Assembly: GCA_963770765.1 (NCBI GenBank)
Contig: CAVYQS010000005.1
Coordinates: 205,242 to 269,241, forward strand
DNA length: 64,000 nucleotides
Direction of reading: 5' to 3'
DNA from: an uncultured Actinomycetes bacterium
GTDB lineage: Bacteria; Actinomycetota; Coriobacteriia; Anaerosomatales; PHET01
The notes under the pieces are model-generated. The model made no database searches and had not been told where the DNA came from. It saw only the letters and a program-made list of their open reading frames with translations. Within the stretch, counting starts at the first letter, position 1, and the number at the start of each line of letters is the position of its first letter. Position numbers and translations under genes: made by a program. Positions 12,915 through 42,328 of the stretch are shown here, piece by piece.

Positions 12915-12999
12915 GGCGGGCAGGGCCAGCGGGATTGCGTCATGATGGATTGGCACCACAGCGGACGACCGATGTGATGAAACTGAAAGGAGCGCCACC

Positions 13000-26268: not shown

Positions 26269-27480
26269 GTGCGGGGGATGTCGGCAGTGACCAGGAGGGA
26301 CCGAGAGACCGATCTGGCCATGGGATTCGGCTCTCCCGAGTGCCCGGTCGACGTCACCGTCATCTTGCCGGCGCTCAACGAGAACGGCACCATCGAGGGC
26401 ATCTACAACCAGATGGTCAACGTGCTCGAGCCCATGGAACTGTCGTACGAGATCCTCTTCGTCGACGATGGGTCCACCGACGACACCTGGGAGCATATCG
26501 CCGCGGTTGTCGCGAAGGATAGCCGGGTGAGGGCGCTTCGCCATCGCCGCAACTACGGCAAGGCCAGTGCTCTGGCCAATGGATTCAGCTACGCACGTGG
26601 CGACATCATGGTCACATCCGACGCCGACATGCAGTACGACCCCGTCGACGTCGTCCGGCTGATCAACAAGGTGCGCGAGGGCTGGGACGTCGTGTCGGCC
26701 TACAAGGTGATCAGGCGCGACCCCCTGAACAAGCGGCTGCCCTCGAAGTTCTTCAACTTCTGGGTTCGCAGCACCACGGGTGTGGAGCTACACGACTTCA
26801 ACGCCGGCCTCAAAGCGTACCGTCAGGATGCGGCACGGGATCTGGTGCAGTACGGCTACGGTGAGCTCCACCGCTTCTTCATCCTGCTCGCGGCGCAGAT
26901 GGGCTACTCGGTGACCGAGGTTCCCGTTGAAAGCCTGCCGCGAACCGACGGAACGTCCAAGTACGGCGCGGAGCGCTATCTGCGCGGCGCGTTCGACTAC
27001 ATGACCGTCTACTTCCTGTCGGGTTACAAAGAGCGGCCGATGCACTTCTTGGGGACGGCAGGTCTCGTGCTGGGCGGAATAGGCACGGCCGTTCTGATCT
27101 ACCTGGGCTATCTGGCGCTCTTCGCCCAGCAGAGCCTCACGGGGCGGCCCTCACTCACCGTTGCGGTGCTGTTCATCCTGGCGGGCATCCAGTTCTTCGT
27201 CTTCGGACTGATGGCCGAGATGATCAACAACCTCGAGCGCGGCAGTGCGAGCCGCGCGAAGATATCGCAGGTGTTGGGCGTCGACCGCCGTACGAGCCCG
27301 CTGATCGCACCGCAGGTCCAGGTGGACCGCCGCCGGGCAGACCGCACGCTCGAGCCCGAGATGCAGCCGGAGCACATCCGCGACACGGTGGTGGCCGCTG
27401 CCCCGGTCGAGCCCGTGGTGCCGTTGGTCGCCCAACCCGTCGATCGCATCGAGGCGGACACGGAGCACAGCGGTATCTAG
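26269..27480 (+). CDS. GT2 polyprenol-phosphate glycosyltransferase (GtrB/DPM1-like) with C-terminal TM segments
   Basis: VTVILPALNE, LFVDDGSTDDT, SDADMQYDP. TM helices after residue ~270. Confidence 0.85.
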   Translation: MRGMSAVTRRDRETDLAMGFGSPECPVDVTVILPALNENGTIEGIYNQMVNVLEPMELSYEILFVDDGSTDDTWEHIAAVVAKDSRVRALRHRRNYGKASALANGFSYARGDIMVTSDADMQYDPVDVVRLINKVREGWDVVSAYKVIRRDPLNKRLPSKFFNFWVRSTTGVELHDFNAGLKAYRQDAARDLVQYGYGELHRFFILLAAQMGYSVTEVPVESLPRTDGTSKYGAERYLRGAFDYMTVYFLSGYKERPMHFLGTAGLVLGGIGTAVLIYLGYLALFAQQSLTGRPSLTVAVLFILAGIQFFVFGLMAEMINNLERGSASRAKISQVLGVDRRTSPLIAPQVQVDRRRADRTLEPEMQPEHIRDTVVAAAPVEPVVPLVAQPVDRIEADTEHSGI

Positions 27481-28586
27481 CGCGCCCGCAGCCTCGTGAA
27501 CGTCAGTCGGGGGTCTGCTGAGGGCGAACCCGCGGTCTCGCGCCTTCGACGAGGCCCACTGCGAAGCGGCCAGAACGCGAGGCCCGCAGGCCCCTTACCC
27601 ACAAAGGTCGTGAGCGGCCATTCGGTTGGGCGCCAGTGGTGTTTGTAGGAGTCCCCACCCCATCCGAGGTCGAAGGTCCGAGGCACTCCGGAGCACAACC
27701 AGTCGCGCATGACATGCGTGTCGAGCACCAATCCGGGGGAGTAGGCTGCGTAGTCCGGATCGTACGCGAGGAGGATCCCGTAGCGCGCGGCCCCGCGGAT
27801 GACGTCGTACGTCCCCGCAATCACCTTCTCATCGAACACCAGAGTCGACAGGACACCCTCGGTACCGAGCTCAGTCTGCCTGCGTATGAAGGCGACGTAC
27901 TCCCCGCCGATGAGATCGACGCTCAGCCCAGCGAGTTCGCGCTGCCTCACCTTGAGGTCGCAGAGGTGTCGCAGCAGATCGAAGCTCCGCTCGTCACCCA
28001 GCGTCTCTTCCTCAAACCGGAACCCGCCATCGCGTGTGAGGCGGTGGGTCTGCCTGTGCACGGCCTTCTGGCGACCCTTGCTCAGCGTCTGCTCATAGAA
28101 TTCGGGGTCCCCGCCCCCCGTGACCACGGGGACGACGCCGTGGCGATAAGAGTTCAGCGTCGCCGAGAGGGCCGGATACGCGACCGCGTCTGCCCGGATG
28201 TTGGATAAGAGCAGCGGCCGCGCCCGATTGGCTCGCTGCAGCCGTGAGACGGCTTCGCACACGAACTCGTCGGCCGAGACGTGCGTTTGCTGCGTGTCGA
28301 AGAGCACGTCTGCCGAGTCGAGGACATCGGGCAGGCCCATCCACGTGAGCACCCGGACCCCGTGTACGCGGGTCACGCACCCGGGAAAGAGCCCGACCGG
28401 GGCGTCGCCGTCGTGAAGAACCACGATCTGCGGATGCGCACCGACTCGACCGCCGAGCGTCTCGTACCAGGCGCGTGCCAGCGCGTAGGTCTGGAAGTAG
28501 GAGACGCCGTCTCGGCGCTCCAGCTCTGTCCAGCTCTCACGCGCCTGCTCGAGGCCGTCCGGGCCGCTCAGAATCGTGTAGGACAA
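27477..28586 (-). CDS. CelD/BioF2-like GNAT (FemAB-like) acyltransferase
   Basis: 369 aa. The organisation and sequence resemble Acetyltransf_6 proteins found in EPS loci. Its stop shares the CTAG with the convergent GT2 gene. Confidence 0.65.
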   Translation of the reverse strand: MSYTILSGPDGLEQARESWTELERRDGVSYFQTYALARAWYETLGGRVGAHPQIVVLHDGDAPVGLFPGCVTRVHGVRVLTWMGLPDVLDSADVLFDTQQTHVSADEFVCEAVSRLQRANRARPLLLSNIRADAVAYPALSATLNSYRHGVVPVVTGGGDPEFYEQTLSKGRQKAVHRQTHRLTRDGGFRFEEETLGDERSFDLLRHLCDLKVRQRELAGLSVDLIGGEYVAFIRRQTELGTEGVLSTLVFDEKVIAGTYDVIRGAARYGILLAYDPDYAAYSPGLVLDTHVMRDWLCSGVPRTFDLGWGGDSYKHHWRPTEWPLTTFVGKGPAGLAFWPLRSGPRRRRETAGSPSADPRLTFTRLRAR

Positions 28587-28604
28587 CGCTCCTCCTCGCG
28601 GATG

Positions 28605-29507
28605 CTACCGGGACCGGTCGCGAACCGCGGTGGTCGCGGGCGCCACCGTCTCGGCTGCGAAGCCTGCCAGCTGCAAGACCAGGTTCAAGCCGAGCAGCGG
28701 GGCGACCAAGACGATCTTCGGGCTCGTCGCGTTCATCTTGAGTATCCGGCCGTAGCTCGCGAACCGGTTGCCCACGTAGCCGCCCACCGGGACCTTGCGT
28801 GAGAACTGCCTCTTTGCGCGCCCGCGCCGATACGACCAGCTGCAGAACTCGACGACGCTCGTTCGGGCAGGGTGAACGACCGTGGCGTCGGGGCAGTACA
28901 GCACGCGGTGCCCCGCCTGTCGGAGCCGGTACGAGAACTCGGTGTCCTCGCCGCCCAGCGTCATCGACTCGTCGAAGCCGCCCAGTTCGCGAACGACGTC
29001 CGCGCGGATCGCACAGTTGCCGCTGGGGAGGTTGTCGGTGGTTCCGTCTTCGTGCACCGGGAACATCGTCGCGTAGCCGGCGCTGCCCCCGGCCGGAAAG
29101 CCCAGAGCCGAGATCGAGTCGCCCACGTACCCGGCGGGCGGGATGAGGATCGTCCCGGCGGCGGCGGAGATCGAAGGCGTGTCGAGCGCCGAGAGCAGCG
29201 AATCGAGCCACCCCGGTTGCGGCATGCAGTCGTCGTCGGTCCAGACGAGCACGTCGCCGCGTGCCGCCTCGATCACACGGTTGCGGTTGTACGCGAGGCC
29301 CCGTCGGGCGGGCACTTCGATCCAGCGCACCCCGGCGTCGTCGGTCGACTCGCGCGGCGTGTCGGTGTCCGCTGACTCGACGGCGACGATCAGCTCGGCA
29401 ACGCGGTCCTTGGGAAGCGCGAGAACGTGCGCTATCAGCCGGTCGAGCTCGGGGATGCGCTGCTTGGCGATCACACAGAAACTCACGCCGGGGTGCTCGG
29501 CACTCAC
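28605..29507 (-). CDS. Glycosyltransferase family 2
   Basis: VSFCVIAK.., WTDDDCMPQPGWL. The GTG start overlaps the upstream stop (GTGA). Confidence 0.8.
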   Translation of the reverse strand: MSAEHPGVSFCVIAKQRIPELDRLIAHVLALPKDRVAELIVAVESADTDTPRESTDDAGVRWIEVPARRGLAYNRNRVIEAARGDVLVWTDDDCMPQPGWLDSLLSALDTPSISAAAGTILIPPAGYVGDSISALGFPAGGSAGYATMFPVHEDGTTDNLPSGNCAIRADVVRELGGFDESMTLGGEDTEFSYRLRQAGHRVLYCPDATVVHPARTSVVEFCSWSYRRGRAKRQFSRKVPVGGYVGNRFASYGRILKMNATSPKIVLVAPLLGLNLVLQLAGFAAETVAPATTAVRDRSR

Positions 29508-30287
29508 CGCGCGCCGCCCTTCCCGGCAGCACGCCGCGCGGCGTCGTAGGCGGCGAAGAAGCGCCCTGATGTCTTGAGTCGGTCGAACGGAAGCCAATCG
29601 GTCCCATACACCGGGACGCGCCTGATCTCGAAGGCGTCGCCGCCGCCATGGGTCACGCTGAACCCGGCTTCGAACCCGGCGTCACGTACGGCCGCTTTAC
29701 TGTCAGGGTCGAGCCAACCGAAGGGGAAGGCGAAGTAGCGACCTTCCAATCCGTGTTCGAGGAGCGCGCTGCGCGAGCGCTGCGCTTCGGCTTTGGCGTC
29801 GGCGTAGCCGAGCGACTGCATCGCCAGGTGCCCGTCGCCGTGCGACCCGATGGTGACCCCCGCCGCGCTCGCGGCCCGCAGGTCGTCCCAGCTCATGAGC
29901 GATTCGCTGAGGTCCGTCCGGCGCCGCAGGCGGTCCAGGGGTGTCGGCTCGGAGCGCCACTCGTTGGTGCCGCCCACGTAGCGCGTGGGGACGAACAGCG
30001 CTGTTGCCGCGGTGAGGCCCAGCCGTTCGAGTACGGGCAGCGCGCGGGCCTGGAAGCTCGCAAGTCCGTCGTCGAAGGTGAGGCTGAAGCAGGGCTTCTC
30101 GGCGGGGTTCGGGGCTCAGGGGGCCGCATGCGATGGCTGCCTCGAGGGAGAGCGGCGTGTAGCCGGCGTCGAGCAGCCGCGTGAGCTGCCGCTCGAAGGC
30201 TCGCACGGTCATGACGTAGCGGCTGGTCCGCCTGTCTGACAGGTGGTGGTAGGCCAAGATCACCGGCCACTCGAGTCGCTGCGCCAT
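29504..30287 (-). pseudogene. Polysaccharide deacetylase (NodB family) with a +1 frameshift near 30097-30100
   Basis: N-terminal part MAQRLEWPVILAYHHL..GPLSPEP. C-terminal part AEKPCFSLTFDDGLASF..GSHGDGH... An extra C in a CCCC run (minus strand) separates them. Confidence 0.7.
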
Positions 30288-30289
30288 CG

Positions 30290-31180
30290 TCACCACCAGG
30301 TTCGGCCCGACAGCGCGGACAGCCGCCGCGTGTCGGCCAGGGACAGCCGCCTGCTCGCGTCGGCGCGGTTCGCACCCCAGTCGCCCACGCTGCGCACGAC
30401 CGTCTGCCACGTCTCACGCAGGTGCCCCTTGCGCGCGGCCGCGAGCAGCCCGTAGCCGATCCAGATCGCCGCGTGTACCTGCGCGTAGGGTGCCGGCAGG
30501 TAGCGCGCCGCAAGCCGCATTCGGATCTCGACATAGCCGGACTCGCGGTCGCCCGTGTTCTGCGGGCTGGGAATCGCCAGGTGCACGAACCGGATATCGG
30601 GTGCGAACAGGATACGTTTGTGCGCCTTGATGAAGCGCACCGAGACATCCTGCTCCCACGCGTAGTACTCGACGTCCGGATAGCCGCCCACATCGCGAAG
30701 GCTCTGCGCCCGAAAGGCGACCGCGCCTCCCAAGAACAGCCCGATGTCGGTGGGCTCGGTGGGCATCCGTTTGCTGCGCAACGGGATCTCCCGATGCCTG
30801 ATGGAGCCGTCGGGCGCCTCGACGCGAAAGCAGATCGCGGCCAGGTCGGGCTGAGCATCGAAGTACGCGACGATCCGGTCGGCCGCATCGGACTGCGCCA
30901 GATAGCCGTCGTCGTCGAGGTTGACCCAGATGTCGCCGCTCGAAGCGGCTGCGCCCTGCTCGAGTGCCGGACCGATGCCCACGCGCCCGGGGTTCTTGAT
31001 GTAGATGGTCTCGGGGAACTCGGCGAGCACCGCCTCGCGGCTGCCGTCGGTCGAGTTGTCATCGACCACGATCATCTCTTTGTGCGGGTAGGTCTGGGTG
31101 TCGATGCGCCGCAAGCACTCCAGCAATGAGTCCTTACGGTCGATGGTCGGGACGATGAAGGAGACCTTTGGGCTGCTCAT
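30290..31180 (-). CDS. Glycosyltransferase family 2
   Basis: MSSPKVSFIVPTIDR.., VVDDNSTDGS, LDDDGY. The track ORF is over-extended 5'. Confidence 0.85.
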   Translation of the reverse strand: MSSPKVSFIVPTIDRKDSLLECLRRIDTQTYPHKEMIVVDDNSTDGSREAVLAEFPETIYIKNPGRVGIGPALEQGAAASSGDIWVNLDDDGYLAQSDAADRIVAYFDAQPDLAAICFRVEAPDGSIRHREIPLRSKRMPTEPTDIGLFLGGAVAFRAQSLRDVGGYPDVEYYAWEQDVSVRFIKAHKRILFAPDIRFVHLAIPSPQNTGDRESGYVEIRMRLAARYLPAPYAQVHAAIWIGYGLLAAARKGHLRETWQTVVRSVGDWGANRADASRRLSLADTRRLSALSGRTWW

Positions 31181-31220
31181 GTCGACTATCATAGGGCAAC
31201 AGTCGGCAGGGGAGGTGGCA

Positions 31221-32651
31221 GTGCGAACAAGCGTGGCGCGGGGAGCGCTTCTCGGCTTTGCCGGGCAAGCGTGGCATCTTGCGGCCACGTTCTTCCTGTA
31301 CGCATTCCTCGCGCGCCAGCTGGGCCCCGAGCTGTTCGGGCAGTGGCGCGTCGTCCTCTCGGTGCTCGGGTGGTTCGAGATCGTGCTGTACTCGGGCATC
31401 ACCAGCGTCGCGACCAAGGCGATAGCCGAGAAGCCCGAGGACACGCCCTCGCTCGCACGCGCGACCTACTGGGGACAGGGCATCGTCGTCGCGGCGGTCG
31501 TCGTGCTGATGGTCGTGCTCGCCGGTCCGGTCGCCGGTTCGCTGTCCGACCCGGCTCTCGCCACCTACATCCGCATCTCGGCGCTGGACGTGCCCTTCTA
31601 CGCGCTGTTCATGTCCGCGATCGCGCTCCTGCTCGGCAAGCAGCGGTTCGAGCGCCAGGTCGTCGCGATGGCAGCCTACTCGACGGCCAAGGTCGTCTCC
31701 ATTGGCGTGCTGGTCGCGCTGGGGTTCTCGGTGACCGGCGCGCTCGTGGGAAACGCGCTCGCGTCCGTGGTCGGCTTCGCCGTCGCGTTCGTCCCGCTTC
31801 CCGGAAGACGTGTATCGCTGAAGTCACTCACACCGGTGGTGCGCTGGCTGTACGTGGCATCGGTGCCGTTCATCACGTTGAGCCTCGTGAGCGGCTTGGG
31901 TCGCAGCGCGGACCTGTGGCTCGTCTCGGCAACGGTCGCGAGTGCCGTCGCAGTGGGATGGTACGCATCGGCGACCGTTCTGGCCGAGGTGCCCTTGTTC
32001 ATCTTCGACGGCCTGTCCAGGGTGCTGTTCCCGTCGATCGCGCGCTCCCTGTCCGAGGACGACAAGGCTCTGTCGTCGCGCTATGCCGTTCAGGCGGTAA
32101 GGCTCGGGCTCATGGTCACGGTGCTCGTCGTTGGCCTGGTGGTGGGGAGTGGCCGGCAGATACTGGAGTTCCTCTACTCGGCGGAGTTCCTGGGCGCCTA
32201 CATCCCGTTCGCGATACTCACGGTCGCCTCAGTGGGTCGCGTGACCCAGTCGAGCTGTACCCACATCCTGATGGCGCAGGACCGCCGCATACTTGCGAAT
32301 ACCATCCTCGTGGTCACACTCGGGATCCAGCTTGCGCTGTTGGTGATCGCTGCGTCGCGCTACGGCGCGGTCGGTGCCGCTGCCGCGGCGAGCACGGCGG
32401 CGGTTTTCGCGGGCGTGTGGTCGGCCGTGGCGGTCCGGGACCTTCTGGGCTTCAGGCCGCTGGCCACCTTGGCGCGGTGCAGTGCCGCCGCCGCAGTCGT
32501 GGCGCTGGCGCTGTACAGCGTGTCGTTCCCGCCCGCGTACGTCCTGCTCGTGCTTCCCGCCGGGTCGGTCGTCTACCTTGTGCTGCTGTCCCTGTTCGGG
32601 GAGATCGGTCGCGACGACTACGCTGCGGTTCGCGCCGCGATTGGTCGATAA
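31221..32651 (+). CDS. Wzx-like oligosaccharide flippase (MOP superfamily)
   Basis: About 14 TM segments and a polysaccharide-biosynthesis-protein-like sequence. GTG start after GGGGAGGTGG. Confidence 0.8.
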   Translation: MRTSVARGALLGFAGQAWHLAATFFLYAFLARQLGPELFGQWRVVLSVLGWFEIVLYSGITSVATKAIAEKPEDTPSLARATYWGQGIVVAAVVVLMVVLAGPVAGSLSDPALATYIRISALDVPFYALFMSAIALLLGKQRFERQVVAMAAYSTAKVVSIGVLVALGFSVTGALVGNALASVVGFAVAFVPLPGRRVSLKSLTPVVRWLYVASVPFITLSLVSGLGRSADLWLVSATVASAVAVGWYASATVLAEVPLFIFDGLSRVLFPSIARSLSEDDKALSSRYAVQAVRLGLMVTVLVVGLVVGSGRQILEFLYSAEFLGAYIPFAILTVASVGRVTQSSCTHILMAQDRRILANTILVVTLGIQLALLVIAASRYGAVGAAAAASTAAVFAGVWSAVAVRDLLGFRPLATLARCSAAAAVVALALYSVSFPPAYVLLVLPAGSVVYLVLLSLFGEIGRDDYAAVRAAIGR

Positions 32652-32658
32652 GACATTC

Positions 32659-34320
32659 GTGAGGATTACCGCTGCGACATCCACCGGTGCTCCCGGCATA
32701 AGGCGGCTGCTCGACGATCCCGTCGAACGGCTGACGCTGCTGTCCTTGATCGGGCTCACGATACTCGGCGCGGCGCTGAGGTGGATCTCGATCGACAGCA
32801 GGGGGCTGTGGCTCGACGAGGCCGTCACCGTGGTGCAGGCCCGGCGAACCATCCCGCTCATCATCGAGACCGTCGCCCAGGGCGTCCATCCGCCGCTGTT
32901 CCACATCCTGATGCACTTCTGGGTCACGGTCTTCGGCGTATCCGAGGCTGCGGTTCGGAGCTACGCATCGGTGTGGGGCACCCTGTCGATCCCCGCGGCG
33001 TACTGGGCTGCGCGCTCCTTCTACGACCGCCGCAGCGGCCTCATCGCGGCCCTCATCGTCTCGGTCTCCCCGTACCTGATCTGGTTCTCGCAAGAGGCGC
33101 GCATGTACTCGATGCAGCTGTTCTTCGCGTTCCTGAGCTTGGGCTTCCTCAAGCTCGCCTGCCGCCACAACCGGCCCCGGTACTGGGTCGGCTACGCCCT
33201 CGCGACCGCACTCGGCATGTTCACGCACTACTTCTTCGCGTTCCTCGTGTTGGGGCAGGGACTCTACTTCGTGATCGTGGAGGTCCTCGTCGTCCACACG
33301 CGCCTGAGGCGCGAGGGGCGGGCGATCTCCTCGTGGCGGCGCCCCTGGAGGCTGTTCGAAGAGATCCCCAAGCTCGGGCCGTGGCTGATGTGCGTCGCGT
33401 TCATCGGCGTGCTCTACGGAGTGTGGCTGAGCCGCTCGGTGTTCTTGGGCGACGGTAATCCGCTGCTCGTCTCGGCGGGCGGCGGTGGCCTGGGGTACGG
33501 CCAAGTCGCGCCCGAGTGGAGGCTGCGTTTCGCTGAGGTCGGCACCATCGTGATCGAGATGATGTTCGGCTTCCACCCGCTGTGGCTCACGACCGCGGTG
33601 GTCGCGATGTGGCCCGTCGTCATCTACGCGGTGCTCGCGCTCCTCGACTACATGGAGTTCCTCGCACGACGGTCCACGATCGCGCTGTGGGCCACGATCG
33701 GCCTCGTGGTCCTGGCTGTCCTGGGCCAGTGGCAGGGTCAGGCCCTCGCGTCCCGCTACTACATATCGCTCGCTGCGCCCATGGTGATCCTCGTCGGCGG
33801 GGTCCTGGGGGCCATGGCGACGGGCCGGCGCCGCGGGTTCCTCATCGTGGGGGTGCTGATCAGTATCGCCGCATGGGGAAGCCAGTCCTACAACCCGCAG
33901 ACCACCGTGCGGTTCGAGTACCGAGAAGCGCTCAACACGATCGTCGACCAGTCCCAGCCCGGCGACGTCGTCATCTACGAACCGCTCTACCTCGACCCCG
34001 TGATGCTGTACTACGTGCCCCCCGAGATCCCGGCGTATCCCTTCCCGCAATACACCGCGGAGGGCGACGAGCGTCGGGCTCCCGCCGAGATCCGTGCCGA
34101 CTTGGAGCGTACGGTGGGACCCGCGCAGCGTGTGTGGGTGGCTCTGGGCTTCCGCGAGATCCCGGTGGTCAACGAGGATGCCATCAATACGCTCGCGTGG
34201 TTCGAGGACGAGGGCTTCGCGCTGAGCGCGACCTACGAGTTCAATCGGATGCAGGTCTATCTGTTCGAGCGCATGTACGATACGAGAGCGCCCGTCGACT
34301 TGCTGGAGGTGACGCCATGA
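32659..34320 (+). CDS. GT-C fold glycosyltransferase (GT39/ArnT/PMT_2-like)
   Basis: GLWLDEAVTVVQA.., HPPLFHILMHFW, polytopic N-terminal half and a soluble C-terminal domain. Confidence 0.8.
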   Translation: MRITAATSTGAPGIRRLLDDPVERLTLLSLIGLTILGAALRWISIDSRGLWLDEAVTVVQARRTIPLIIETVAQGVHPPLFHILMHFWVTVFGVSEAAVRSYASVWGTLSIPAAYWAARSFYDRRSGLIAALIVSVSPYLIWFSQEARMYSMQLFFAFLSLGFLKLACRHNRPRYWVGYALATALGMFTHYFFAFLVLGQGLYFVIVEVLVVHTRLRREGRAISSWRRPWRLFEEIPKLGPWLMCVAFIGVLYGVWLSRSVFLGDGNPLLVSAGGGGLGYGQVAPEWRLRFAEVGTIVIEMMFGFHPLWLTTAVVAMWPVVIYAVLALLDYMEFLARRSTIALWATIGLVVLAVLGQWQGQALASRYYISLAAPMVILVGGVLGAMATGRRRGFLIVGVLISIAAWGSQSYNPQTTVRFEYREALNTIVDQSQPGDVVIYEPLYLDPVMLYYVPPEIPAYPFPQYTAEGDERRAPAEIRADLERTVGPAQRVWVALGFREIPVVNEDAINTLAWFEDEGFALSATYEFNRMQVYLFERMYDTRAPVDLLEVTP

Positions 34321-35864
34321 TCGAGATCGCGCGATCGCGGCGCCCCTCGTATCTCGTGATCTGTCGGGCCCTTTCGGTCCTGTCGGGAATCGCGGCCATC
34401 GTCTACCTCAAGTGGTTGCTGTTCGACGCCCGGCCCGACAACTACATCCTCTACGGCATGCTGGTCGCCGCCGAGCTGTTCAACGTCGCACAGGCGTCAG
34501 GCTACTGGCACACGATCATCACGCAACAGTGGGTCGAACCCCCGACGCCGAACTTCTCGAAGACCATGGAGAGCGTCGACATCTACGTGACCGTCTTCGG
34601 CGAGCCGGCCGATATCGTGGAGCGCACCGTCGCGGCCGCGGCCGCGATACGCCACCCACGCAAGACCGTGTACGTGCTCGACGATGGCAGCTCGCCGGCG
34701 ATCCTCAAGATCGCGCGGCGTCACCGGGCGAAGTACCTGACCCGCCCCACGAACCGCGGGGCGAAAGCGGGCAACATCAACGACGCCATGAAGCGCACCG
34801 ACGGGGACTACATCCTGGTCTTCGACGCCGACCACGTCGCGGCACCGGAGTTCCTCGAAAGGACTCTGGGAGTCTTCTCGGACATCACGGTGGCGTTCGT
34901 TCAGACGCCACAGGTCTACTGGAACAAGCCGATCAACCGTGTCGCTGCGGGCTCCAACGATCAGCAGGGCGTCTTCTACGGCGCGATCATGCGCGGGAAG
35001 AACACCACCGGCTCGGCCTTCGCCTGCGGCACGAACGTGGTCTATCAGCGTGCCGCCCTTGAGGAGATCGGCGGAATGCCCGAGGACTCCATCACCGAGG
35101 ATCAAAGGGCGTCCCTGCTCTTCCTCGAAAGAGGCTACCGGTCTGTCTACGTGCCCACGGTCCTTGCCCGCGGCATGGGCCCGGTCGACGTCGGCAGCTA
35201 CTTCAACCAGCAGTTCCGATGGGCCCGCGGGTCGTTCGACATCATGTACCACCACAAGCCGTTCTTCCGCGGGATGCCGTTCGTCACGCGCTTCCAGTAC
35301 TTCCTGTGCTTCCTGTACTGGTTCAGCGGCTGGGCGTACGTCGCGTACATGGTCCTGCCCGTGGCGTACCTGTTCTTCGGGTTGCGGCCGATCCAGGTGC
35401 CTAACGACTACCCGGTGTACTTCCTGCCCTACATCGTCATCTCGCTGGTCACCATCGGCTACTCCACCGACTTCAAGATGAGCTTCGCCGGTCTGTGGTT
35501 CACGCTGGCGTCGTTCCCCGTGTTCATCAAGGCATCCATCGTGGCGCTCAGCCGACGACCGGCCAAGTTCGTCGTCACGTCGAAGGAGGCCGGCACGCGG
35601 ACCTTCAGGCCGGTGCGGATCCAGATCGCGGTGGTCGCCTTGCTGCTCGCCGCGATCGTGCACGGCATCTACCGGTTCGGGTTCGTTCCTGCGACGATGA
35701 ACAACGTCGCGATCGCCCTCGGGCACATATTCATAATCCAGGGGTTCATTCGCTACTCGTACCGCCCGGAGGCATCCCGAATGAACACGGTCGACATCTT
35801 CGACGTGGAACCCCGGCGCAACCCGCCCGGTATCGCAGAACTGATCGAAGGTGAGAGCGCATGA
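34317..35864 (+). CDS. Processive GT2 synthase, cellulose-synthase (BcsA/CesA)-like, with no PilZ domain
   Basis: VLDDGS, FDADH, AFACGTNVVY, ITEDQRASL (TED), QQFRWARG (QxxRW). ATGA overlap with the GT-C gene. Confidence 0.85.
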   Translation: MIEIARSRRPSYLVICRALSVLSGIAAIVYLKWLLFDARPDNYILYGMLVAAELFNVAQASGYWHTIITQQWVEPPTPNFSKTMESVDIYVTVFGEPADIVERTVAAAAAIRHPRKTVYVLDDGSSPAILKIARRHRAKYLTRPTNRGAKAGNINDAMKRTDGDYILVFDADHVAAPEFLERTLGVFSDITVAFVQTPQVYWNKPINRVAAGSNDQQGVFYGAIMRGKNTTGSAFACGTNVVYQRAALEEIGGMPEDSITEDQRASLLFLERGYRSVYVPTVLARGMGPVDVGSYFNQQFRWARGSFDIMYHHKPFFRGMPFVTRFQYFLCFLYWFSGWAYVAYMVLPVAYLFFGLRPIQVPNDYPVYFLPYIVISLVTIGYSTDFKMSFAGLWFTLASFPVFIKASIVALSRRPAKFVVTSKEAGTRTFRPVRIQIAVVALLLAAIVHGIYRFGFVPATMNNVAIALGHIFIIQGFIRYSYRPEASRMNTVDIFDVEPRRNPPGIAELIEGESA

Positions 35865-35915
35865 TGCTCGGCACTCACGAGAACACGTCGCGAACGGACT
35901 CTCGGCCGCCGGCGG

Positions 35916-37100
35916 GTGTCCCCGGCCATCGGCCTGTGCGTGGTCATCGCAACCGCAGCGGCCCTGCTCTCGGGCTGTGCTGAGCAACCGAGGGGGGCCC
36001 TGTCCGACCCGGACTTCGTGCCCGACGAGTACGCTGTCGTGACCACGCCCACGGTGCCGCTCGCGGGGGTGGTCGCACCGCCGGAGACCGGCGCGTTCGC
36101 GGGCGTCTTCAGGCCGCCGGCACCGCTCGATATGGCGCGCTTCGACGCCTACGTCGACATGACCGACAGGGACCCGGCGATCTTGATGTGGTTCCAGCCG
36201 TGGGCGCAGACGGAGACCGCTCCCTACCGGTTCGATGCGGCTGCAGTCGTCGCCACGATGCGCCGGGGGGCCATCCCCATGATCTCGTGGGAGCCGTGGG
36301 ACCCGGGTACGGATCCCGGGTTGCTCGACCGGCCCGACGATCAGTCGGACTTCCGGCTGCAACGCATCGTCGACGGCGAATTCGACGCCTACATCCGCGA
36401 ATGGGCCAAGGGCTGCGCGACGGTGGGCGGACCGATCATGCTGCGACCCATGCACGAGATGAACGGCAACTGGTACCCGTGGAACGGGTTCGTGAACGGC
36501 AACTCGCCGAAGCTCTACATCGCCGCATGGCGCCACGTCCACGACATCTTCGTCGAGGAGGGGGCGACCAACGTCACGTGGGTCTGGAGCGTCAACCACA
36601 CGAGTGGCCCCGACGTCGCGAAGAACTACCCCGAGGTCTACTACCCCGGCGACGCGTACGTGGACTGGATCGGCATAAGCGGCTTCAACTGGGGGAACTC
36701 GAGACCCGGCCTGAGCTGGAGCAGCTTCAGGAAGACCTACGATGCGTCGATCGAGTATCTCAGGCGCTACGGCAAGCCGATGGCGATCTGCGAGTTCGCC
36801 AGCGTCGAGGCACCGGGCGACAAGGCCGAGTGGATCGCCGACGCCTATGAGCGGATCCGAACGGAGTATCCCGAGATCAAGGCGGTCATCTACTACGACA
36901 ACCTCGAGCAGGGCGTGAAGGGCAAGCAGGACTGGAACGTGGACAGTTCGCCCGAGAGCCTGGCCGCCTACAAGGAGGCGATCGGCGATCCGTACTTCGT
37001 GGGGGCGGTCGCACCGACTCTTGAAGAATGGTCCGCTCAGCTGGACCCGAAACACTGGGCCTACCTGCTGAGCATCCGAAGGATCTACTACGCCGATTAG
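35916..37100 (+). CDS. GH26-like glycoside hydrolase, lipoprotein
   Basis: Lipobox AALLSGC, MHEMNGNWYPWNG, CEFASVE. The true start may be ATG 35861 in another frame (see finding). Confidence 0.75.
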   Translation: MSPAIGLCVVIATAAALLSGCAEQPRGALSDPDFVPDEYAVVTTPTVPLAGVVAPPETGAFAGVFRPPAPLDMARFDAYVDMTDRDPAILMWFQPWAQTETAPYRFDAAAVVATMRRGAIPMISWEPWDPGTDPGLLDRPDDQSDFRLQRIVDGEFDAYIREWAKGCATVGGPIMLRPMHEMNGNWYPWNGFVNGNSPKLYIAAWRHVHDIFVEEGATNVTWVWSVNHTSGPDVAKNYPEVYYPGDAYVDWIGISGFNWGNSRPGLSWSSFRKTYDASIEYLRRYGKPMAICEFASVEAPGDKAEWIADAYERIRTEYPEIKAVIYYDNLEQGVKGKQDWNVDSSPESLAAYKEAIGDPYFVGAVAPTLEEWSAQLDPKHWAYLLSIRRIYYAD

Positions 37101-37261
37101 GGCCGCCGGAGGTACGGAGGGCGCACGACCGTCTGCCGTGCGCACCTTCGCGAGTGACGAAAGTCACAGTCGCAGGTCAAGCCGGCTACGCGAGCGGCCG
37201 ATAACAAGGAGCGTGGAGAACGAAGGCCCGAGGGCCTTCCCGACCACTCACTGACAACCCG

Positions 37262-37340
37262 ACAAAGGCAAACCCGTCGCGAGGCGGGGGCGCAAAACCA
37301 AGGGTCTCTCGCGAGAGACAGCCTAGTTGCCGAAGGTGAT
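37262..37340 (+). promoter_or_regulatory. Candidate c-di-GMP-I (GEMM-I) riboswitch
   Basis: ACAAAGGCAAACC-CGUC-GCGA-GGCG-GGGGCGCAAAACC-AAGG-GUCUCUC-GCGA-GAGAGAC-AGCCUAGUUGCCGAAGG. Compare the Vc2 core GGCAAACC..GAAA..GGGACGCAAAGCC...AGC.GGGUUACCGA. The GAAGGUGA SD follows immediately. Confidence 0.6.
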
Positions 37341-37344
37341 CGTC

Positions 37345-38694
37345 TTGAAGAAGCTCCCCGCTGTCTTGTGCGCGGCCGTGCTCGTCTCGGCCGTCCTCGC
37401 CTCTCCGGCCCCCGCGTTCGCCGCCTCCAAGCTGCGGGTCAGCACCACGGTCAAGCCCGTGGTGAAGTCGGGCGCCACCGGAAGAGTAGTGGTCAAGTCG
37501 AAGTCGACGCGTCCGGCGAAGTTCAAGGTCACCGTCTACAAGAACGGCAAGCGCATTCGGACGATCAAGCCCAAGGGCACGTGGTATCGCAAGAGCACTA
37601 CGTGGAACCTTCGCGACTCGAATGGCAGGAAGGCTGCGGCGGGTGTCTACACGGTCAAGGTCACCGCGACGCGGAACGGCCGGTCCGTGAGCAAGGTCAG
37701 GCGGATCCGCGTGGTGAAGCCCGCCCCGAAGCCGGTTCCCGCGACCCCGCCCACGGTCTCTCCCGAGCCGGAGCCTACCTACCCCAGCCCTGACCCCTCC
37801 GCACCCGGAGCCCCGGTGACACCGGTGGTCAATCCGGCCGCAAGCTCCCCGCGCTGGGTCGGATTCTACGTCCCCGGCGTTCCCGGCAGCATGAGCCCCC
37901 TCGATGCCGTGGAGAACGCGACCGGAGCCGATTCGGCCGTCGTCAACTTCTTCATCAGCGACAGCGAGAGGTTCCCGGCATCCCGTTGCGAGAACGTGGC
38001 CGAAGCGGGTGCGGTGCCGCTCGTCACCCTTGAGTTCTGGTCGATCCAGAACTCAGGCGGCCTCGCCGCGATCAACAACGGCAGCAAGGACGCCTACCTG
38101 CGCACGTTCGCGGATGCAGCGAAGGCGTATGGGGGCGAGGTCTGGCTTCGCCCGTTCCATGAGATGAACGGCAACTGGTACCCGTGGTGCGGGACCGTGG
38201 GCAACAATACCCCCGCACAGCTCGTCACGGCATGGCGTCACGTGTACGACGTCTTCCAGTCCCGCGGTGCCACCAACGTCAAGTTCGTCTGGTGTGCGAA
38301 CGTCGACAGCGTCCCCAACACGACCGCGAACCAGATCGCGAAGTTCTGGCCGGGCGACGCCTACGTGGACTCGGTCGCCCTCGACGGCTACAACTGGGGC
38401 GTCACGTCGGCGTCGTGGTCCTCGTGGCGCAGCTTCGGCAGTATCTACGGACCCGCGTACAACACGGTCACGGCCCTGACCTCGAAGCCGCTGTTCATCG
38501 CCGAGATAGGGTGCTCGGAAGTGGGCGGCAGCAAGGCGGCATGGATCACCGACATGTTCAAGTCGATCACGAGCACCTACACGCGCGTGCGAGGCGTGGT
38601 CTGGTTCGAAGTCGACAAGGAGCAGGACTGGCGTGTGACCGCCTCGAGTGCGAGTACCGCCGCATACCGAAACGCAGTGACGGCCGGCTACTGA
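37345..38694 (+). CDS. Secreted GH26-like glycoside hydrolase with N-terminal Ig-like (FlgD-Ig-like) domain and Pro-rich linker
   Basis: Preferred TTG start gives MKKLPAVLCAAVLVSAVLASPAPAFA. Also VYTVKVTATRNG and FHEMNGNWYPWCG. The track start at 37327 lies inside the riboswitch. Confidence 0.75.
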   Translation: MKKLPAVLCAAVLVSAVLASPAPAFAASKLRVSTTVKPVVKSGATGRVVVKSKSTRPAKFKVTVYKNGKRIRTIKPKGTWYRKSTTWNLRDSNGRKAAAGVYTVKVTATRNGRSVSKVRRIRVVKPAPKPVPATPPTVSPEPEPTYPSPDPSAPGAPVTPVVNPAASSPRWVGFYVPGVPGSMSPLDAVENATGADSAVVNFFISDSERFPASRCENVAEAGAVPLVTLEFWSIQNSGGLAAINNGSKDAYLRTFADAAKAYGGEVWLRPFHEMNGNWYPWCGTVGNNTPAQLVTAWRHVYDVFQSRGATNVKFVWCANVDSVPNTTANQIAKFWPGDAYVDSVALDGYNWGVTSASWSSWRSFGSIYGPAYNTVTALTSKPLFIAEIGCSEVGGSKAAWITDMFKSITSTYTRVRGVVWFEVDKEQDWRVTASSASTAAYRNAVTAGY

Positions 38695-38715
38695 TAGAGC
38701 GCAGACGGCCCGAGC

Positions 38716-38752
38716 CCGACCGCCTTCCCCCTGCCGGGGGGGAGGGCGGTCG
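38716..38752 (+). terminator. Intrinsic terminator candidate
   Basis: About 16-bp stem CGACCGCCTTCCCCC..GGGGGGAGGGCGGTCG, followed by a T-enriched tract. Confidence 0.6.
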
Positions 38753-38808
38753 CTTCGTGTGTTCGGTTTGGGGCATCTACTCGGCATGGTCCACGAGAGG
38801 AGAGCCCG

Positions 38809-39321
38809 ATGGTGCAAGACGACAACGAAACCACCACCGCCGATTCGACCGCTTCCGAGGAGCCGAAGGTCGCTGCAGACGGCCCGTCGGCCGGTGCGGG
38901 TGACGCATGGCACGAGGTCGTCGTGCAGATCGATGCACTCGGCTCGGCCGTGAGCGCGTGGACCCGCTCGGCGATCGACGACCCGGAGAACCGCCGGCAC
39001 GCTGCGGAGATTCGGTCCCGGCTCGAGTCGATGACGCGCCGCGTGGCAACCACCATCGATGAGGCGTCGAAGAGCGAAGTCGGCAGTGCCGTGGTCGACG
39101 GCGCCGAGAAGACCGGGCAGGCTGTCGTCGAAGCGGGCGGCAAGGTCGCCGAGGCCGCTGCGCCGCATGTCGCGTCGGCACTCACCGGGCTTGCAGGGTT
39201 CCTTGGCAGCGCCGCCGAGCGGGTGGGACGGGCCACCGAGAAGCCCACGCAGCCGCCTGCCGACGAAGCCGCCGATGGGGAGGTCGCCGACGAGTCGACC
39301 CCCGACCCGGGCCAGCACTGA
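38809..39321 (+). CDS. Hypothetical Ala/Glu-rich protein
   Basis: 170-aa ORF with plausible composition. No recognisable motif. Confidence 0.4.
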   Translation: MVQDDNETTTADSTASEEPKVAADGPSAGAGDAWHEVVVQIDALGSAVSAWTRSAIDDPENRRHAAEIRSRLESMTRRVATTIDEASKSEVGSAVVDGAEKTGQAVVEAGGKVAEAAAPHVASALTGLAGFLGSAAERVGRATEKPTQPPADEAADGEVADESTPDPGQH

Positions 39322-39360
39322 TCCGGCACCCCCGCGCGTCGACATCGCCGCCGATCACCC

Positions 39361-39945
39361 TCAGCGGTCGAGCCAGTGCACCTCGCCGCTCGCAAGCTTG
39401 TACGCTGCGCCCACGACCTGCGTCTCGGCGCCGGTGGGGCCGATCTCGCCGAGGAAGCTCCTGAGTTCGGCGACGGTGTCGACCACGTGCGCATCGACTG
39501 CGGCCGCCAGCAGTGCGTCGTCGGCATCGGCGGGCGCCGCGCTCGGGTCGACTCCGTCGATTCGGATGTGCCGCGTGATGGGTGCGAGCCACTCCGGTGC
39601 GTCGCCGGCCAGCGCTGCTGCGACCGCGCCACAGTCCTCGTGGCCGAGCACGACCACCGTGCGTGCGCCGAGCCGCGCGACCGCGAACCGTATCGACGCC
39701 AGGCTCGCCTGGGCCAAGACGTGTCCCGCGGTTCGCACCACGAACAGCTCGCCCGGGCCCGCGTCGAACACCGCCTCGACAGGGACGCGGGAGTCCGAGC
39801 ACCCCACCACGACCGCCCACGGCCGCTGTCCCGCAAGAGAGAGCGCACGTTGCTCGGCCGAGAAGTGCCCCGAAGTGCGCCCCTCGACGAACCGCCGGTT
39901 ACCCTCTTTGAGCATTCTCAGTGCAGCGACGGTGTCGTGCGTCAT
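39361..39945 (-). CDS. Beta-class carbonic anhydrase
   Basis: VVGCSDSRVP and LGHEDCGAV zinc ligands. Start MTHDT after AGGGGG. Confidence 0.85.
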   Translation of the reverse strand: MTHDTVAALRMLKEGNRRFVEGRTSGHFSAEQRALSLAGQRPWAVVVGCSDSRVPVEAVFDAGPGELFVVRTAGHVLAQASLASIRFAVARLGARTVVVLGHEDCGAVAAALAGDAPEWLAPITRHIRIDGVDPSAAPADADDALLAAAVDAHVVDTVAELRSFLGEIGPTGAETQVVGAAYKLASGEVHWLDR

Positions 39946-40016: not shown

Positions 40017-41093
40017 CTATCGGCGAGGCGGGCGAATGCCCACCAGCCACGCGGTGGGACGTGTCCGCGCGAGCAGATCGCTCACCCCGAAGCTCGCAGC
40101 GCTCACCGCGAGCCACACGCCCACCGTGAACCACCAGTGCGTCCACGGCCACCCGCCGTTCGCGTCCACGGCCGCGTCGACCAGCAAGAGCAGCACAGGA
40201 TGTACGAAGTACACCCCGAACGCGAGCGATCCCATCCGCGTGAGCAGCGCGGCCCGGTTGGCATAGCGTGGCTCGAGGGCGATGGCCCCCAGTGCCATTC
40301 CCACGACGGTCGCGGCCATCGCACCGGGGAAGACGAGGCGCTGCAGTTCGAGCGGCCAGTCGGGGAGCCCGCGGGCGCTCACTGCCGCGAGGCTGATCAC
40401 CCCGCCCGCGAGCATCAGAGGCCACGCCGACGTGAACCGTCGAGGCAGTATGGGCAGGCGGAGTGCGAACCAGGCGCCCAGCGCCATGTGGGGGAGGTGC
40501 GAAAGCACGTGTGTCGCGTACTGCCCGAACAGGGGATGCAGGCCGCTTGCCGCGTGGGTGAGCACCGGTCCTGCGACGATGCGCAGCACATAGGCCGCGG
40601 CGAGCAGGGTCTCCGGGCTCCACCGGGCAGCTCGGGACGCGACCGGCGTGAGCAGGTAGAACGTGAGAAGCATCGGGATGAAGTACAGGTGGTACCAGAT
40701 GTGCCCGGAGGCCACGAGGCCGGGTACCCGTAACAGGGCCGCGGCGCCATCAGCCGATCTCTCGACGTACAGAACCGCGTAGAGCGCGGCCCATGCGAGG
40801 TACGGCAGCCCGATCACTCCGAGGCGCTTGGCGACGAACTCGCGGTAGGCGCCCTTTCCGCCTCTCCACGGACGAGCCCACACGAGCGCGCCCGAGATGA
40901 AGACGAACAGCGGCACCGCATAGTGCAGCACGTCGTCGAGAATCCGGATCGGTGCGGTGTCGGGCAGCACCGACCGGTACGGCATCAGCGTATGGATCGC
41001 CACGACGGTGAGGATCGCCAAGACACGCAACGCATCGTAGGCGACGATACGACCGGCGGGCGGTGCGGGGTTCTCGGATGGCTTTCGCGTCAT
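40017..41093 (-). CDS. Acyltransferase family 3 (OafA/YrhL-like O-acyltransferase)
   Basis: YDALRVLAILTVVAIH.. and a 10-TM pattern. Confidence 0.8.
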   Translation of the reverse strand: MTRKPSENPAPPAGRIVAYDALRVLAILTVVAIHTLMPYRSVLPDTAPIRILDDVLHYAVPLFVFISGALVWARPWRGGKGAYREFVAKRLGVIGLPYLAWAALYAVLYVERSADGAAALLRVPGLVASGHIWYHLYFIPMLLTFYLLTPVASRAARWSPETLLAAAYVLRIVAGPVLTHAASGLHPLFGQYATHVLSHLPHMALGAWFALRLPILPRRFTSAWPLMLAGGVISLAAVSARGLPDWPLELQRLVFPGAMAATVVGMALGAIALEPRYANRAALLTRMGSLAFGVYFVHPVLLLLVDAAVDANGGWPWTHWWFTVGVWLAVSAASFGVSDLLARTRPTAWLVGIRPPRR

Positions 41094-41136
41094 CGTCGGA
41101 GTGTAGCCGCGAGAGGGCGAGCCGCGACAGCCCGTG

Positions 41137-41679
41137 TCAGGCGGCGGCGCCGCGCGCGGGGTCGAGCCGAGGCTCATGGCGAACCAGCGCCTCGCAGACC
41201 CGCTGTGCCTCGGTCTCGTTGAGTCCGGTTCCCATCCTCACGGTCTTGCCCGCGTAGTCGAAGGCGAGCAGGTCCTTCGCCGAGCCGCTGTCTCCGGCCA
41301 AGGGGCGCAGGTTCGTCGCGTGTGCGAGGTCGTAGCGGCGGGTCATCCCCCAGCCGAACGCCTCGGCGCGCTGCGACAGCTTCTCGCCGTCGAGCGACAC
41401 GATCTCGCGGCCGTCGAGCATGAACGCGACCGCGATGCCCGCGAACACCTCTCCCGCGACCCAGCCCGCGAGCCACACGAGCAAGAACAGACTCAGCGGA
41501 TTGAGCAGGCTCCCCACCGAGAGAAGCGACTTGAACGCGCCCAGGCCGCCGAAGGTCCAGCCCACCAACCAGACGCCGAGAAAGGCGACGAGGCACCCCG
41601 AGCGGGGCGCCCGCATCGTCACGCTCAGCGCGTGCGCTTCCTCCTCGATCTCAGGTATGTGGCGTGCGCGGCTGTTCAT
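41137..41679 (-). CDS. Hypothetical membrane protein
   Basis: 180 aa with two or three TM segments followed by a soluble C-terminal domain. Confidence 0.5.
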   Translation of the reverse strand: MNSRARHIPEIEEEAHALSVTMRAPRSGCLVAFLGVWLVGWTFGGLGAFKSLLSVGSLLNPLSLFLLVWLAGWVAGEVFAGIAVAFMLDGREIVSLDGEKLSQRAEAFGWGMTRRYDLAHATNLRPLAGDSGSAKDLLAFDYAGKTVRMGTGLNETEAQRVCEALVRHEPRLDPARGAAA

Positions 41680-41752
41680 GTCAGGAGTATCGGCTCGGAG
41701 GCTCGACCGCTACACTTTCTGCGATCGCACTCACCACGCGGAAGGCAGTGCC

Positions 41753-42196
41753 GTGGCCCGATGTTCCTATCACCCCGATGTCGAGACCGAGCTGAGCTGC
41801 ACCGAGTGTGGCAAGCCCATCTGTCCCAAAGAGATGGTGCTCACACCGGTGGGCTACAAGTGCCCCGAACATGCCCGCGCCGCCAGAGGCCAGTATCAGT
41901 TCGTGAAGCCGAAGCAGCTGGCCCTCGCGATCGCCACCGGCGCCGTCGTCGGCGTGGGCGGCGCCTTCCTGGTGGGCTCCATCGGTTTCGGCGGCTTCTT
42001 CATCGGAATCATCTGGGGGTCGCTCGTGTCGGAGGCCATCCGTCGCGCATCGGGCGGTCACCGTGGCGGCACCGTGGGGGTCGTCGCCGTGGCGAGCATC
42101 GCCCTGGGGTCGCTGCTTGCGGGCGTGAGCATCATCACGGCGATCATCGCCATCGTGGTGGCGCTCATACAGCTCGCCGTGATCGAGATGCGCTGA
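41753..42196 (+). CDS. B-box/zinc-ribbon membrane protein
   Basis: CSYHP..CTECGKPICPKEM..YKCPEH, followed by Gly-rich TM helices. GTG start after GGAAGG. Confidence 0.55.
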   Translation: MARCSYHPDVETELSCTECGKPICPKEMVLTPVGYKCPEHARAARGQYQFVKPKQLALAIATGAVVGVGGAFLVGSIGFGGFFIGIIWGSLVSEAIRRASGGHRGGTVGVVAVASIALGSLLAGVSIITAIIAIVVALIQLAVIEMR

Positions 42197-42328
42197 CCGA
42201 TTCCTGTCTCGAGCCCTCCGTCCGAGACGCGGGGCGGCGATTCGGCACGACTGCGGATTTCGGGCATGTACACCTCGGCAGCAGACCCACCGATCGAACC
42301 ATCCGGACCCCACGGGGAGGAGTTCGCC

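Follow-up and report, generated by a model that had tools for sequence, protein, structure and literature searches.

Positions 26269-38694 of a 64,000-nucleotide (nt) stretch of DNA from an uncultured bacterium of the class Coriobacteriia (contig CAVYQS010000005.1) hold a cell-envelope polysaccharide locus with ten protein open reading frames (ORFs) and one RNA, a riboswitch. The whole stretch is called the window below, and all position numbers refer to it. With moderate confidence, and from comparison of sequences, we interpret the locus as the Coriobacteriia version of an Actinomycetota-wide system in which a synthase-made beta-glucan is combined with extracytoplasmic, lipid-linked glycosylation. 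The conserved core consists of a gene for a GT-C glycosyltransferase, translationally coupled to a gene for a BcsA-type synthase lacking a PilZ domain, and then a gene for a membrane-anchored beta-glucanase. A GtrB/ArnC-like enzyme and, in Coriobacteriia, a Wzx-type flippase are assigned to the conserved set as well. The strongest evidence is the universal adjacency of the GT-C and synthase genes, the natural fusions of the synthase with hydrolases, and the retention of the riboswitch with the second of two GH26 genes. A beta-glucan system of this kind is widespread in Actinomycetota, and it was not found described in the literature searched. The features on which this interpretation is built are as follows (E-values or bit scores in parentheses).

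26278-27480 (+): GtrB/ArnC-like polyprenyl-phosphate GT2 (PF00535, E 2.9e-27)
31179-32651 (+): Wzx/MOP-family flippase (PF01943, 3.8e-20; PF13440, 1.6e-16; MurJ, 7e-8)
32659-34320 (+): GT-C fold glycosyltransferase, PMT_2/ArnT-like (PF13231, 3e-16)
34317-35864 (+): PilZ-less BcsA-like processive GT2 synthase, 515 amino acids (PF13641, PF13632, PF03552)
35916-37100 (+): GH26a, membrane-anchored GH26 lipoprotein of the Lic26A type, lipobox LLSGC (PF02156, 1.2e-13)
37258-37335 (+): c-di-GMP-I-type aptamer, best model RF03167 (cmscan, 74.3 bits against a gathering score of 59)
37345-38694 (+): GH26b, secreted GH26 of the Lic26A type (PF02156, 8.5e-12)

The GT-C/synthase pair and its partners

Homologs of the synthase number more than 1000 at 50-65% identity, and nearly all of them belong to uncultured Coriobacteriia. 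For the synteny comparison, 80 loci were used with one genome per species: 20 Coriobacteriia-type loci (L001-L020; synthase identity 47-62%) and 60 loci from Solirubrobacterales/Thermoleophilia, Acidimicrobiia, Mycobacteriales, Frankiaceae, Propionibacteriales, Actinoplanes, and Aeromicrobium (L021-L080; 38-44%). In tblastn searches with the window proteins, the GT-C gene was located directly upstream of the synthase gene in all 78 loci with upstream DNA, while the other two start too near a contig end to be judged. A synteny search had been proposed as a check in an earlier reading of this sequence (hereafter the initial annotation), and the pair proved constant in it. The classes carrying the pair are otherwise without common flanking genes. 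Genes for GH26, Wzx, the two small GT2s, NodB, and GNAT were found in the Coriobacteriia-type loci only, where their order and content are variable. According to neighbor-ORF clustering and Pfam, the operon of the other classes reads (extracytoplasmic-function sigma factor), short GT2, GT4, pyruvyl transferase, GT-C, synthase, GH8, and the short GT2 at its head has ArnC and DPMS as its best matches. A predicted polyprenyl-phosphate sugar synthase gene accompanies the GT-C/synthase pair in both operon types. In the window, the stop codon of the GT-C gene overlaps the synthase ATG (ATGA). No description of a GT-C/cellulose-type synthase pairing was found in the papers or reviews searched. A 1984-amino-acid ORF in L070 (5468-11422, +) was considered as a GT-C::synthase fusion and rejected, as its joining stretch is Ala/Pro/Arg-rich, of low complexity, and out-of-frame; the joined ORF is probably an assembly frameshift.

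The synthase aligned with BcsA structures at an E-value of 2.8e-52. Its catalytic residues D122/D123, D170-A-D172, and T260-E261-D262, together with Q298-Q299-x-R301-W302 and the gating loop F418-V-x-T421-x-K423 (FxVTxK), were invariant among 19 homologs. PilZ (PF07238) gave no match in the protein, which stops approximately 40 residues past the last transmembrane segment, so that the previous description of the synthase (D, DxD, TED, and QxxRW present, PilZ absent) was borne out. Against the NCBIfam models it scored 278 bits for CelA (TIGR03030; cut-off 699), 73 for PgaC, and 61 for NodC. In sequence, the synthase is thus placed nearest to BcsA, though under every curated cut-off. No match to a BcsB-like gene was detected among the ORFs of the locus or the conserved neighbor clusters. 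Bacterial BcsA-like enzymes are able to produce mixed-linkage glucan, and sequence cannot distinguish their cellulose-type from their mixed-linkage products (PMC10374906, PMC5567048).

For the GT-C protein, a sequence search of PDB returned no match, and fold comparison alone was successful. An AlphaFold (AF2) model built on 33 orthologs reached a predicted local distance difference test (pLDDT) value of 91.3 and a predicted TM-score (pTM) of 0.90. Its best Foldseek match was ArnT (5f15; E 7e-8, TM-score 0.55), followed by OST/PglB/AglB, ALG12, and Pmt4, with a probability of 1.0 throughout. The model also shows an extracytoplasmic C-terminal alpha/beta domain. Across 77 orthologs, the W51-x-D53-E54 motif in the first outer loop, as well as E146, R148, Y150, and several Pro and Trp residues, was invariant or nearly so. 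Retention of WxDE and the other signature residues would be surprising in a degenerate scaffold, and the protein looks, on this model, like a genuine and catalytically competent GT-C. In L005, a second PMT_2-type GT-C gene (12743-14320, +) is present downstream of the first GH26 gene.

The GtrB-like GT2, for which GTG at 26269 is an alternative start, matched ArnC (E 1.3e-41) and GtrB sll0501 (E 1e-28) in PDB, both over the full length, and the DPMS structure at E 4e-18. ArnC and PgfS were its top NCBIfam models, both below the cut-off, and two C-terminal hydrophobic segments cover residues 255-317. By homology, the enzyme is a predicted polyprenyl-phosphate sugar synthase. Its gene lies within 10 kb of the synthase gene in 14 of the 20 Coriobacteriia-type loci. 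The Wzx protein, whose start lies somewhere within 31179-31233, has many hydrophobic segments typical of a multi-pass protein, and its gene adjoins that of the GT-C in most Coriobacteriia loci.

In the extracytoplasmic glycosylation of wall polymers, a membrane GT-A making a C55-P-sugar acts with a flippase and a GT-C (Rismondo et al., PMC8035078); the flippase is of the GtrA type, or of the Wzx type in GacI/GacK/GacL (PMC8035078). As in the multi-component transmembrane glycosylation systems GtrA/B/V, CsbB-GtcA-YfhO, GacI-GacJ-GacK-GacL of Streptococcus pyogenes, and the lactococcal Wps/Csd, a GT-A, a flippase, and a GT-C are all present here by homology, and the GT-C carries the acidic motif in its first outer loop. 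The initial annotation had regarded the locus as a mixture of three usually separate routes. Because the GtrB-like enzyme, Wzx, and the GT-C fit one described glycosylation system (PMC8035078), two routes are to be recognized instead: we assign the locus to a synthase-made backbone joined with lipid-linked decoration, and not to a Wzx/Wzy pathway. Consistent with the previous statement that Wzy, Wzz, and a priming phosphoglycosyltransferase are lacking, none of the three was found among the ORFs scanned at 20.9-46 kb of the window or in the conserved neighbor clusters. The known acceptors of the transmembrane glycosylation systems are teichoic acids, rhamnans, O-antigens, and lipid A, which come from ABC- or Wzy-type routes. 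In contrast to those systems, the GT-C gene of this locus is fixed beside a synthase gene. The unusual point is the acceptor: the constant gene pairing implies that it is what a BcsA-type synthase makes, and no described case of such a product as acceptor of transmembrane glycosylation was found in the literature searched.

Hydrolases and the riboswitch leader

Both GH26 proteins were closest to the GH26 module of Clostridium thermocellum CelH (lichenase CtLic26A), with E-values of 8e-49 for GH26a and 4.1e-60 for GH26b, whereas their mannanase matches were at approximately 1e-11 or weaker. The acid/base Glu (HEMNG) and the nucleophile Glu ((C/A)E(F/I)) aligned with those of CtLic26A in both. 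The two proteins are paralogs sharing 35% identity, and their sequences assign them to the Lic26A type and not to a mannanase-like type. GH26b has an N-terminal Lys/Arg-rich Ig-like domain (FlgD_ig, 24.7 bits, under the cut-off of 27) and a Pro-rich linker; its TTG start at 37345 was deduced from orthologs beginning with MKK. For GH26a, translation from the first usable start, GTG at 35916, would yield a signal peptide that lacks a basic n-region. A basic stretch, RTRRERTLGRRR, is found in frame just 5' of this GTG, but no start codon accompanies it, and the ATGATG at 35861 belongs to a different frame, whereas the orthologs have lipoprotein N-termini with normal basic n-regions. The odd start (35861-35920) is likely another indel error.

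A GH8 gene follows the synthase gene directly in 49 of the 60 non-Coriobacteriia loci, at a median distance of approximately 200 nt; this arrangement is absent from all 20 Coriobacteriia-type loci. In addition, natural fusions were found. Several Coriobacteriia carry a synthase with a C-terminal GH26 (P0052, P0062, P0075, L011), in which the lipoprotein-like hydrophobic segment acts as a linking helix. In other Actinomycetota classes, synthase::GH8 fusions form more than 100 protein clusters, and a synthase::GH6 (PF01341) fusion was seen once; proteins P0234, P0242-P0359, P0355, and P0262 exemplify the domain additions outside Coriobacteriia. GH8, GH6, and Lic26A-type GH26 are thus evidently interchangeable partners of one synthase family, to judge from these arrangements. 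As all of these partners are beta-glucanase families, the backbone is predicted to be a beta-1,4 or mixed beta-1,3/1,4 glucan; this is the best available argument, and it points to a beta-glucan. The observation in the initial annotation that GH26 stands in place of the GH8 enzyme BcsZ was therefore correct, but its use as a sign of an exotic backbone did not hold: since a Lic26A-type GH26 occupies the position that GH8 has in the sister lineages, one glucanase appears to have replaced another. Separately, one synthase outside Coriobacteriia carries a pyruvyl-transferase domain (PF04230).

The aptamer preceding GH26b was recognized with RF03167 scores of 69-78 bits in seven related loci, and aptamers of this type were present in 17 of the 20 Coriobacteriia-type loci. 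Wherever translated, the gene behind the aptamer encodes a secreted protein, and tblastn placed the GH26b ortholog beside it. Moreover, the aptamer stays with the GH26b ortholog in six loci where this gene is located across the core, divergent from the GT-C gene. Some genomes have two aptamer copies in one locus, each preceding another secreted Ig-like/GH26-type protein, as in L006 (17549-17623, -) and L015 (6575-6654, -, and 8032-8109, -).

At its 3' end, the aptamer closes with CCGAAG, which leads directly into the Shine-Dalgarno sequence GAAGGTGA of GH26b. The start codon is located 8-14 nt after GAAGGTGA, and this geometry is constant among the leaders. As there is no space for a terminator between the aptamer and the Shine-Dalgarno sequence, control would be translational, and ligand binding should lower translation, given that the P1 stem contributes its final bases to the Shine-Dalgarno sequence. 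When the leader was folded thermodynamically in search of an anti-Shine-Dalgarno structure or a terminator, nothing significant emerged (z -0.8 to +1.1). At the position where RF03167 has its conserved G (consensus CGC-G-AA), all 19 aptamers carried A. We take this to be the position after which RF03167 is named, equivalent to A47 of the Vc2 aptamer; if so, the 19 aptamers may be ordinary c-di-GMP sensors without the substitution that defines the 'GGC' variant. In common with c-di-GMP-I (GEMM-I) and the RF03167 'GGC' variant, the element has a two-hairpin aptamer, scores above the gathering threshold, and precedes an extracellular-matrix gene; it differs from the RF03167 consensus in having A instead of G at this position.

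Alignments of the regions upstream of the aptamer revealed three further elements.

37153-37168 (+): CRP/FNR-like palindrome AGTGACGAAAGTCACA
37198-37205 (+): conserved -10-like motif CCGATAAC (CCGATA conserved)
37222-37239 (+): hairpin of variable sequence before the aptamer

A TGTGA-N6-TCACA box with two or fewer mismatches was found at a similar distance in 13 of the 19 riboswitch leaders, where approximately 1.5 were expected by chance (an estimate). This suggests a separate CRP-family-dependent promoter for GH26b, with the palindrome as its candidate site. The riboswitch-led gene would then probably form its own unit; the convergent and divergent layout described in the initial annotation was retained, while its count of three transcription units would become four. 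Consensus promoter and terminator scans yielded nothing useful in the high-GC DNA of the window.

Tailoring genes and boundaries of the locus

The remaining four genes form an operon on the minus strand, tightly packed in the order GT2, NodB, GT2, and GNAT.

30290-31192 (-): GT2, first gene of the operon (PF00535, 1.3e-23)
29504-30287 (-): NodB-type (CE4) polysaccharide deacetylase, frame-split (PF01522, 2e-8, C-terminal piece only)
28605-29507 (-): GT2 with a C-terminal hydrophobic segment, residues 260-289 (PF00535, 1.1e-15; PF13641, 3.5e-14)
27477-28586 (-): GNAT, Acetyltransf_6 (CelD/BcsL-type), last gene of the operon (PF13480, 3.3e-17)

The first gene has candidate starts at 31180, 31192, and 31288. 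The GTG start of the second GT2 overlaps the NodB stop (GTGA), the GNAT gene starts with TTG and has GAGGAGGAG just 5' of it, and the convergent stops of the GNAT and GtrB-like genes overlap (CTAG). At the other end of the operon, the candidate starts of the divergent GT2 and Wzx genes overlap or abut at 31179-31192, leaving almost no room for an intergenic promoter; a similarly tight divergence was seen in L001, L006, and L020.

The family assignment of the deacetylase was upheld, but its reading frame is broken. Three-frame translation placed a frameshift near 30100-30104, approximately 10 codons before the TFDDG motif, which is itself present. The frame change (30090-30110, minus strand) occurs between SLEAAIACGPLSPEP and AEKPCFSLTFDDG, within a C-rich repeat run. 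The ortholog in L007 is an intact ORF of 247 amino acids. Public reads from two freshwater-sediment runs yielded three short contigs, none of them over 30036-31174. The break may be that of a real pseudogene or an assembly error.

The other family calls of the initial annotation were confirmed by Pfam, PDB, and fold matches at the coordinates listed above, although twelve genes had been counted where ten ORFs and one RNA were found. The G+C content of the window is approximately 67%, and because of this many long ORFs are shadows of real genes, which were told apart by third-position GC and Pfam. On this basis, the ORFs without Pfam matches at 28537-29649 (-), 29703-30410 (-), 29893-31062 (-), 34497-37145 (-), 41134-42825 (+), and 38688-39848 (-) were rejected as shadow ORFs of high-GC genes. 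The flanking genes encode transport proteins, a peptidyl-prolyl isomerase (PPIase), a carbonic anhydrase, and a two-component system; the boundaries proposed previously are therefore right. A gene for an Acyl_transf_3 membrane acyltransferase (40017-41177, -) was considered a neighbor and not a member of the locus. It is kept only in the closest relative, L020, along with the carbonic anhydrase and two-component genes. No GGDEF motif was found in the window.

Proposed pathway and alternative explanations

The locus shares several features with the Bcs system (BcsA-BcsB-BcsZ; Cereibacter sphaeroides 4HG6/4P00 and Escherichia coli 7LBY), including the D, DxD, TED, QxxRW, and FxVTxK motifs, the membrane channel topology, a dedicated endoglucanase gene beside the synthase gene, and a c-di-GMP(-type) signal in its control. 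Unlike Bcs, it has no matches to PilZ, BcsB, or BcsC, and a GT-C gene stands in the place of the partner gene; its hydrolase is a Lic26A-type GH26 instead of a GH8, and the c-di-GMP-type signal would act via an RNA before the hydrolase gene and not on the synthase. BgsA of Sinorhizobium meliloti and RiGT2 of Romboutsia ilealis are likewise BcsA-like GT2s without a canonical BcsB. BgsA has no PilZ and is part of a c-di-GMP-controlled exopolysaccharide system, and the product of BgsA and RiGT2 is cut by lichenase. A lichenase is also the nearest relative of known structure for the GH26 proteins of the locus, where the linkage type is a prediction. In contrast to the locus, BgsA binds c-di-GMP via its own C-terminus, RiGT2 keeps a PilZ-like domain, and neither has a GT-C, GtrB-like, or GH26 partner. 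Further, cslA-glxA-cslZ of Streptomyces also combines an actinobacterial cellulose-synthase-like GT2 with an adjacent glucanase, but its partners are the copper oxidase GlxA and the GH6 enzyme CslZ, with no GT-C, GtrB-like enzyme, or riboswitch. This is the only actinobacterial system in a review of cellulose (PMC8892547); in that review and an operon survey, actinobacteria are represented by cslA-glxA-cslZ only and no GT-C partner is mentioned.

In the proposed pathway, the synthase would polymerize UDP-glucose to a beta-1,4 or mixed beta-1,3/1,4 glucan and extrude the chain, while the GtrB-like enzyme would charge polyprenyl phosphate with a sugar. Extension and re-tailoring of this lipid-linked sugar, for instance by N-deacetylation and re-acylation, might fall to the two small GT2s, NodB, and the CelD-type GNAT, which is speculation; the sister operon has a GT4 and a pyruvyl transferase in place of these tailoring genes. 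Wzx would turn the lipid-linked sugar to the outer face, and the GT-C, docked beside the synthase, would move it onto the emerging glucan. GH26a may trim or release chains in a BcsZ-like manner. GH26b would be translated only with an unliganded aptamer, as the ligand-stabilized P1 would reach into the Shine-Dalgarno sequence, so that high c-di-GMP would protect the matrix and low c-di-GMP would permit its breakdown. The general idea of a decorated beta-glycan in the initial annotation is thereby supported.

A more specific version of this pathway is put forward tentatively, and we think it somewhat less likely than not to be right in full. It would be a BcsB-less route to a branched or capped beta-glucan, Actinomycetota's own, in which an obligate synthase/GT-C pair grafts lipid-phosphate-linked sugars or short tailored oligosaccharides as the chain leaves the membrane. 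In Coriobacteriia, PilZ control of the synthase would give way to control of polymer turnover by a cyclic-dinucleotide riboswitch, which would act on a secreted hydrolase of the lichenase type.

Several points weigh against the pathway. Sequence does not reveal which sugar the synthase uses, and none of the genes reached an NCBIfam equivalog cut-off. PMT_2 enzymes also glycosylate proteins and lipoglycans, and it is gene adjacency alone (78/78 loci) that points to the glucan as the acceptor of the GT-C. The 120 best long relatives included no GT-C::synthase (PMT_2) fusion. As the tailoring cassette of GT2s, NodB, and GNAT varies and its NodB is frameshifted, the role of the cassette is guesswork. 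Given the folding result, the direction of the switch (ON or OFF) follows from geometry only, and the A at the consensus-G position in every aptamer makes the ligand uncertain.

The first alternative is that the locus houses two adjacent but independent systems: the synthase and the GH26 proteins would make and trim a plain, unbranched beta-glucan, and the GtrB-like enzyme, Wzx, and the GT-C would glycosylate something else, for example a lipoglycan, a polymer resembling teichoic acid, or secreted proteins, among them the GH26 lipoprotein. The range of PMT_2/ArnT-like GT-Cs, which act on lipids, proteins, and wall polymers, is in agreement with it, as are the presence of PgfS, from a protein-glycosylation system, among the top NCBIfam matches of the GtrB-like enzyme, the second GT-C of L005, and the lack of GT-C::synthase fusions mentioned above. 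We nevertheless consider it unlikely, since the GT-C gene stands immediately 5' of the synthase gene in every informative locus, in classes without other common flanks, and overlaps it in the window; a pairing fixed over such evolutionary distance is hard to explain without shared function.

A second alternative, rated lower than independent systems, is that the GT-C is mainly a structural partner replacing BcsB, or that it attaches or primes the glucan at a lipid-linked anchor without adding side chains. No BcsB-like gene was found among the ORFs of the locus or the conserved neighbors, and the C-terminal extracytoplasmic alpha/beta domain of the modeled GT-C could bind glycan. BcsA needs BcsB, and some BcsA-like enzymes work alone (PMC10374906). 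A purely structural role is, however, at odds with the conservation, across the orthologs, of a WxDE motif of catalytic type and of further residues characteristic of GT-Cs, and with the polyprenyl-phosphate sugar synthase gene that accompanies the pair in both operon types. Attachment to an anchor is disfavored as well: BcsA-type enzymes extrude the reducing end first, and this end is not activated for transfer.

Finally, a backbone other than glucan, either a chitin- or poly-N-acetylglucosamine-like polymer of N-acetylglucosamine processed by NodB or a beta-mannan cut by GH26, would agree with the NodB and GNAT genes, with GH26 as a mostly mannanase family, and with the fact that the substrate of a GT2 synthase is unreadable from sequence (PMC10374906), but is highly improbable, as the synthase scored far higher against CelA than against PgaC or NodC, the NodB and GNAT genes are missing from the sister operons and variable among Coriobacteriia, the GH26 proteins match a lichenase rather than mannanases, and in other lineages GH8 and GH6 take the partner position.

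Glycan assembly by synthases and assembly on lipid carriers are commonly regarded as distinct pathways. If the combination of synthase-made glucan and lipid-linked decoration is true, the GT-C/synthase pair, fixed across many classes of Actinomycetota, would be a naturally occurring combination of both pathways, from which decorated beta-glucans could be obtained. It would also be a candidate cellulose-type machinery for Gram-positive high-GC bacteria, for which the reviews searched describe only the Streptomyces system. Further, an Rfam riboswitch variant linked to one gene class, a secreted beta-glucanase, makes its ligand and physiological logic directly testable. Cultured carriers of the GH8-type sister operon include Nocardioides bruguierae, Nocardioides sp. 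GY 10127, Aeromicrobium sp. IC_218, and Actinoplanes sp. URMC 104, in which the model would be genetically testable.

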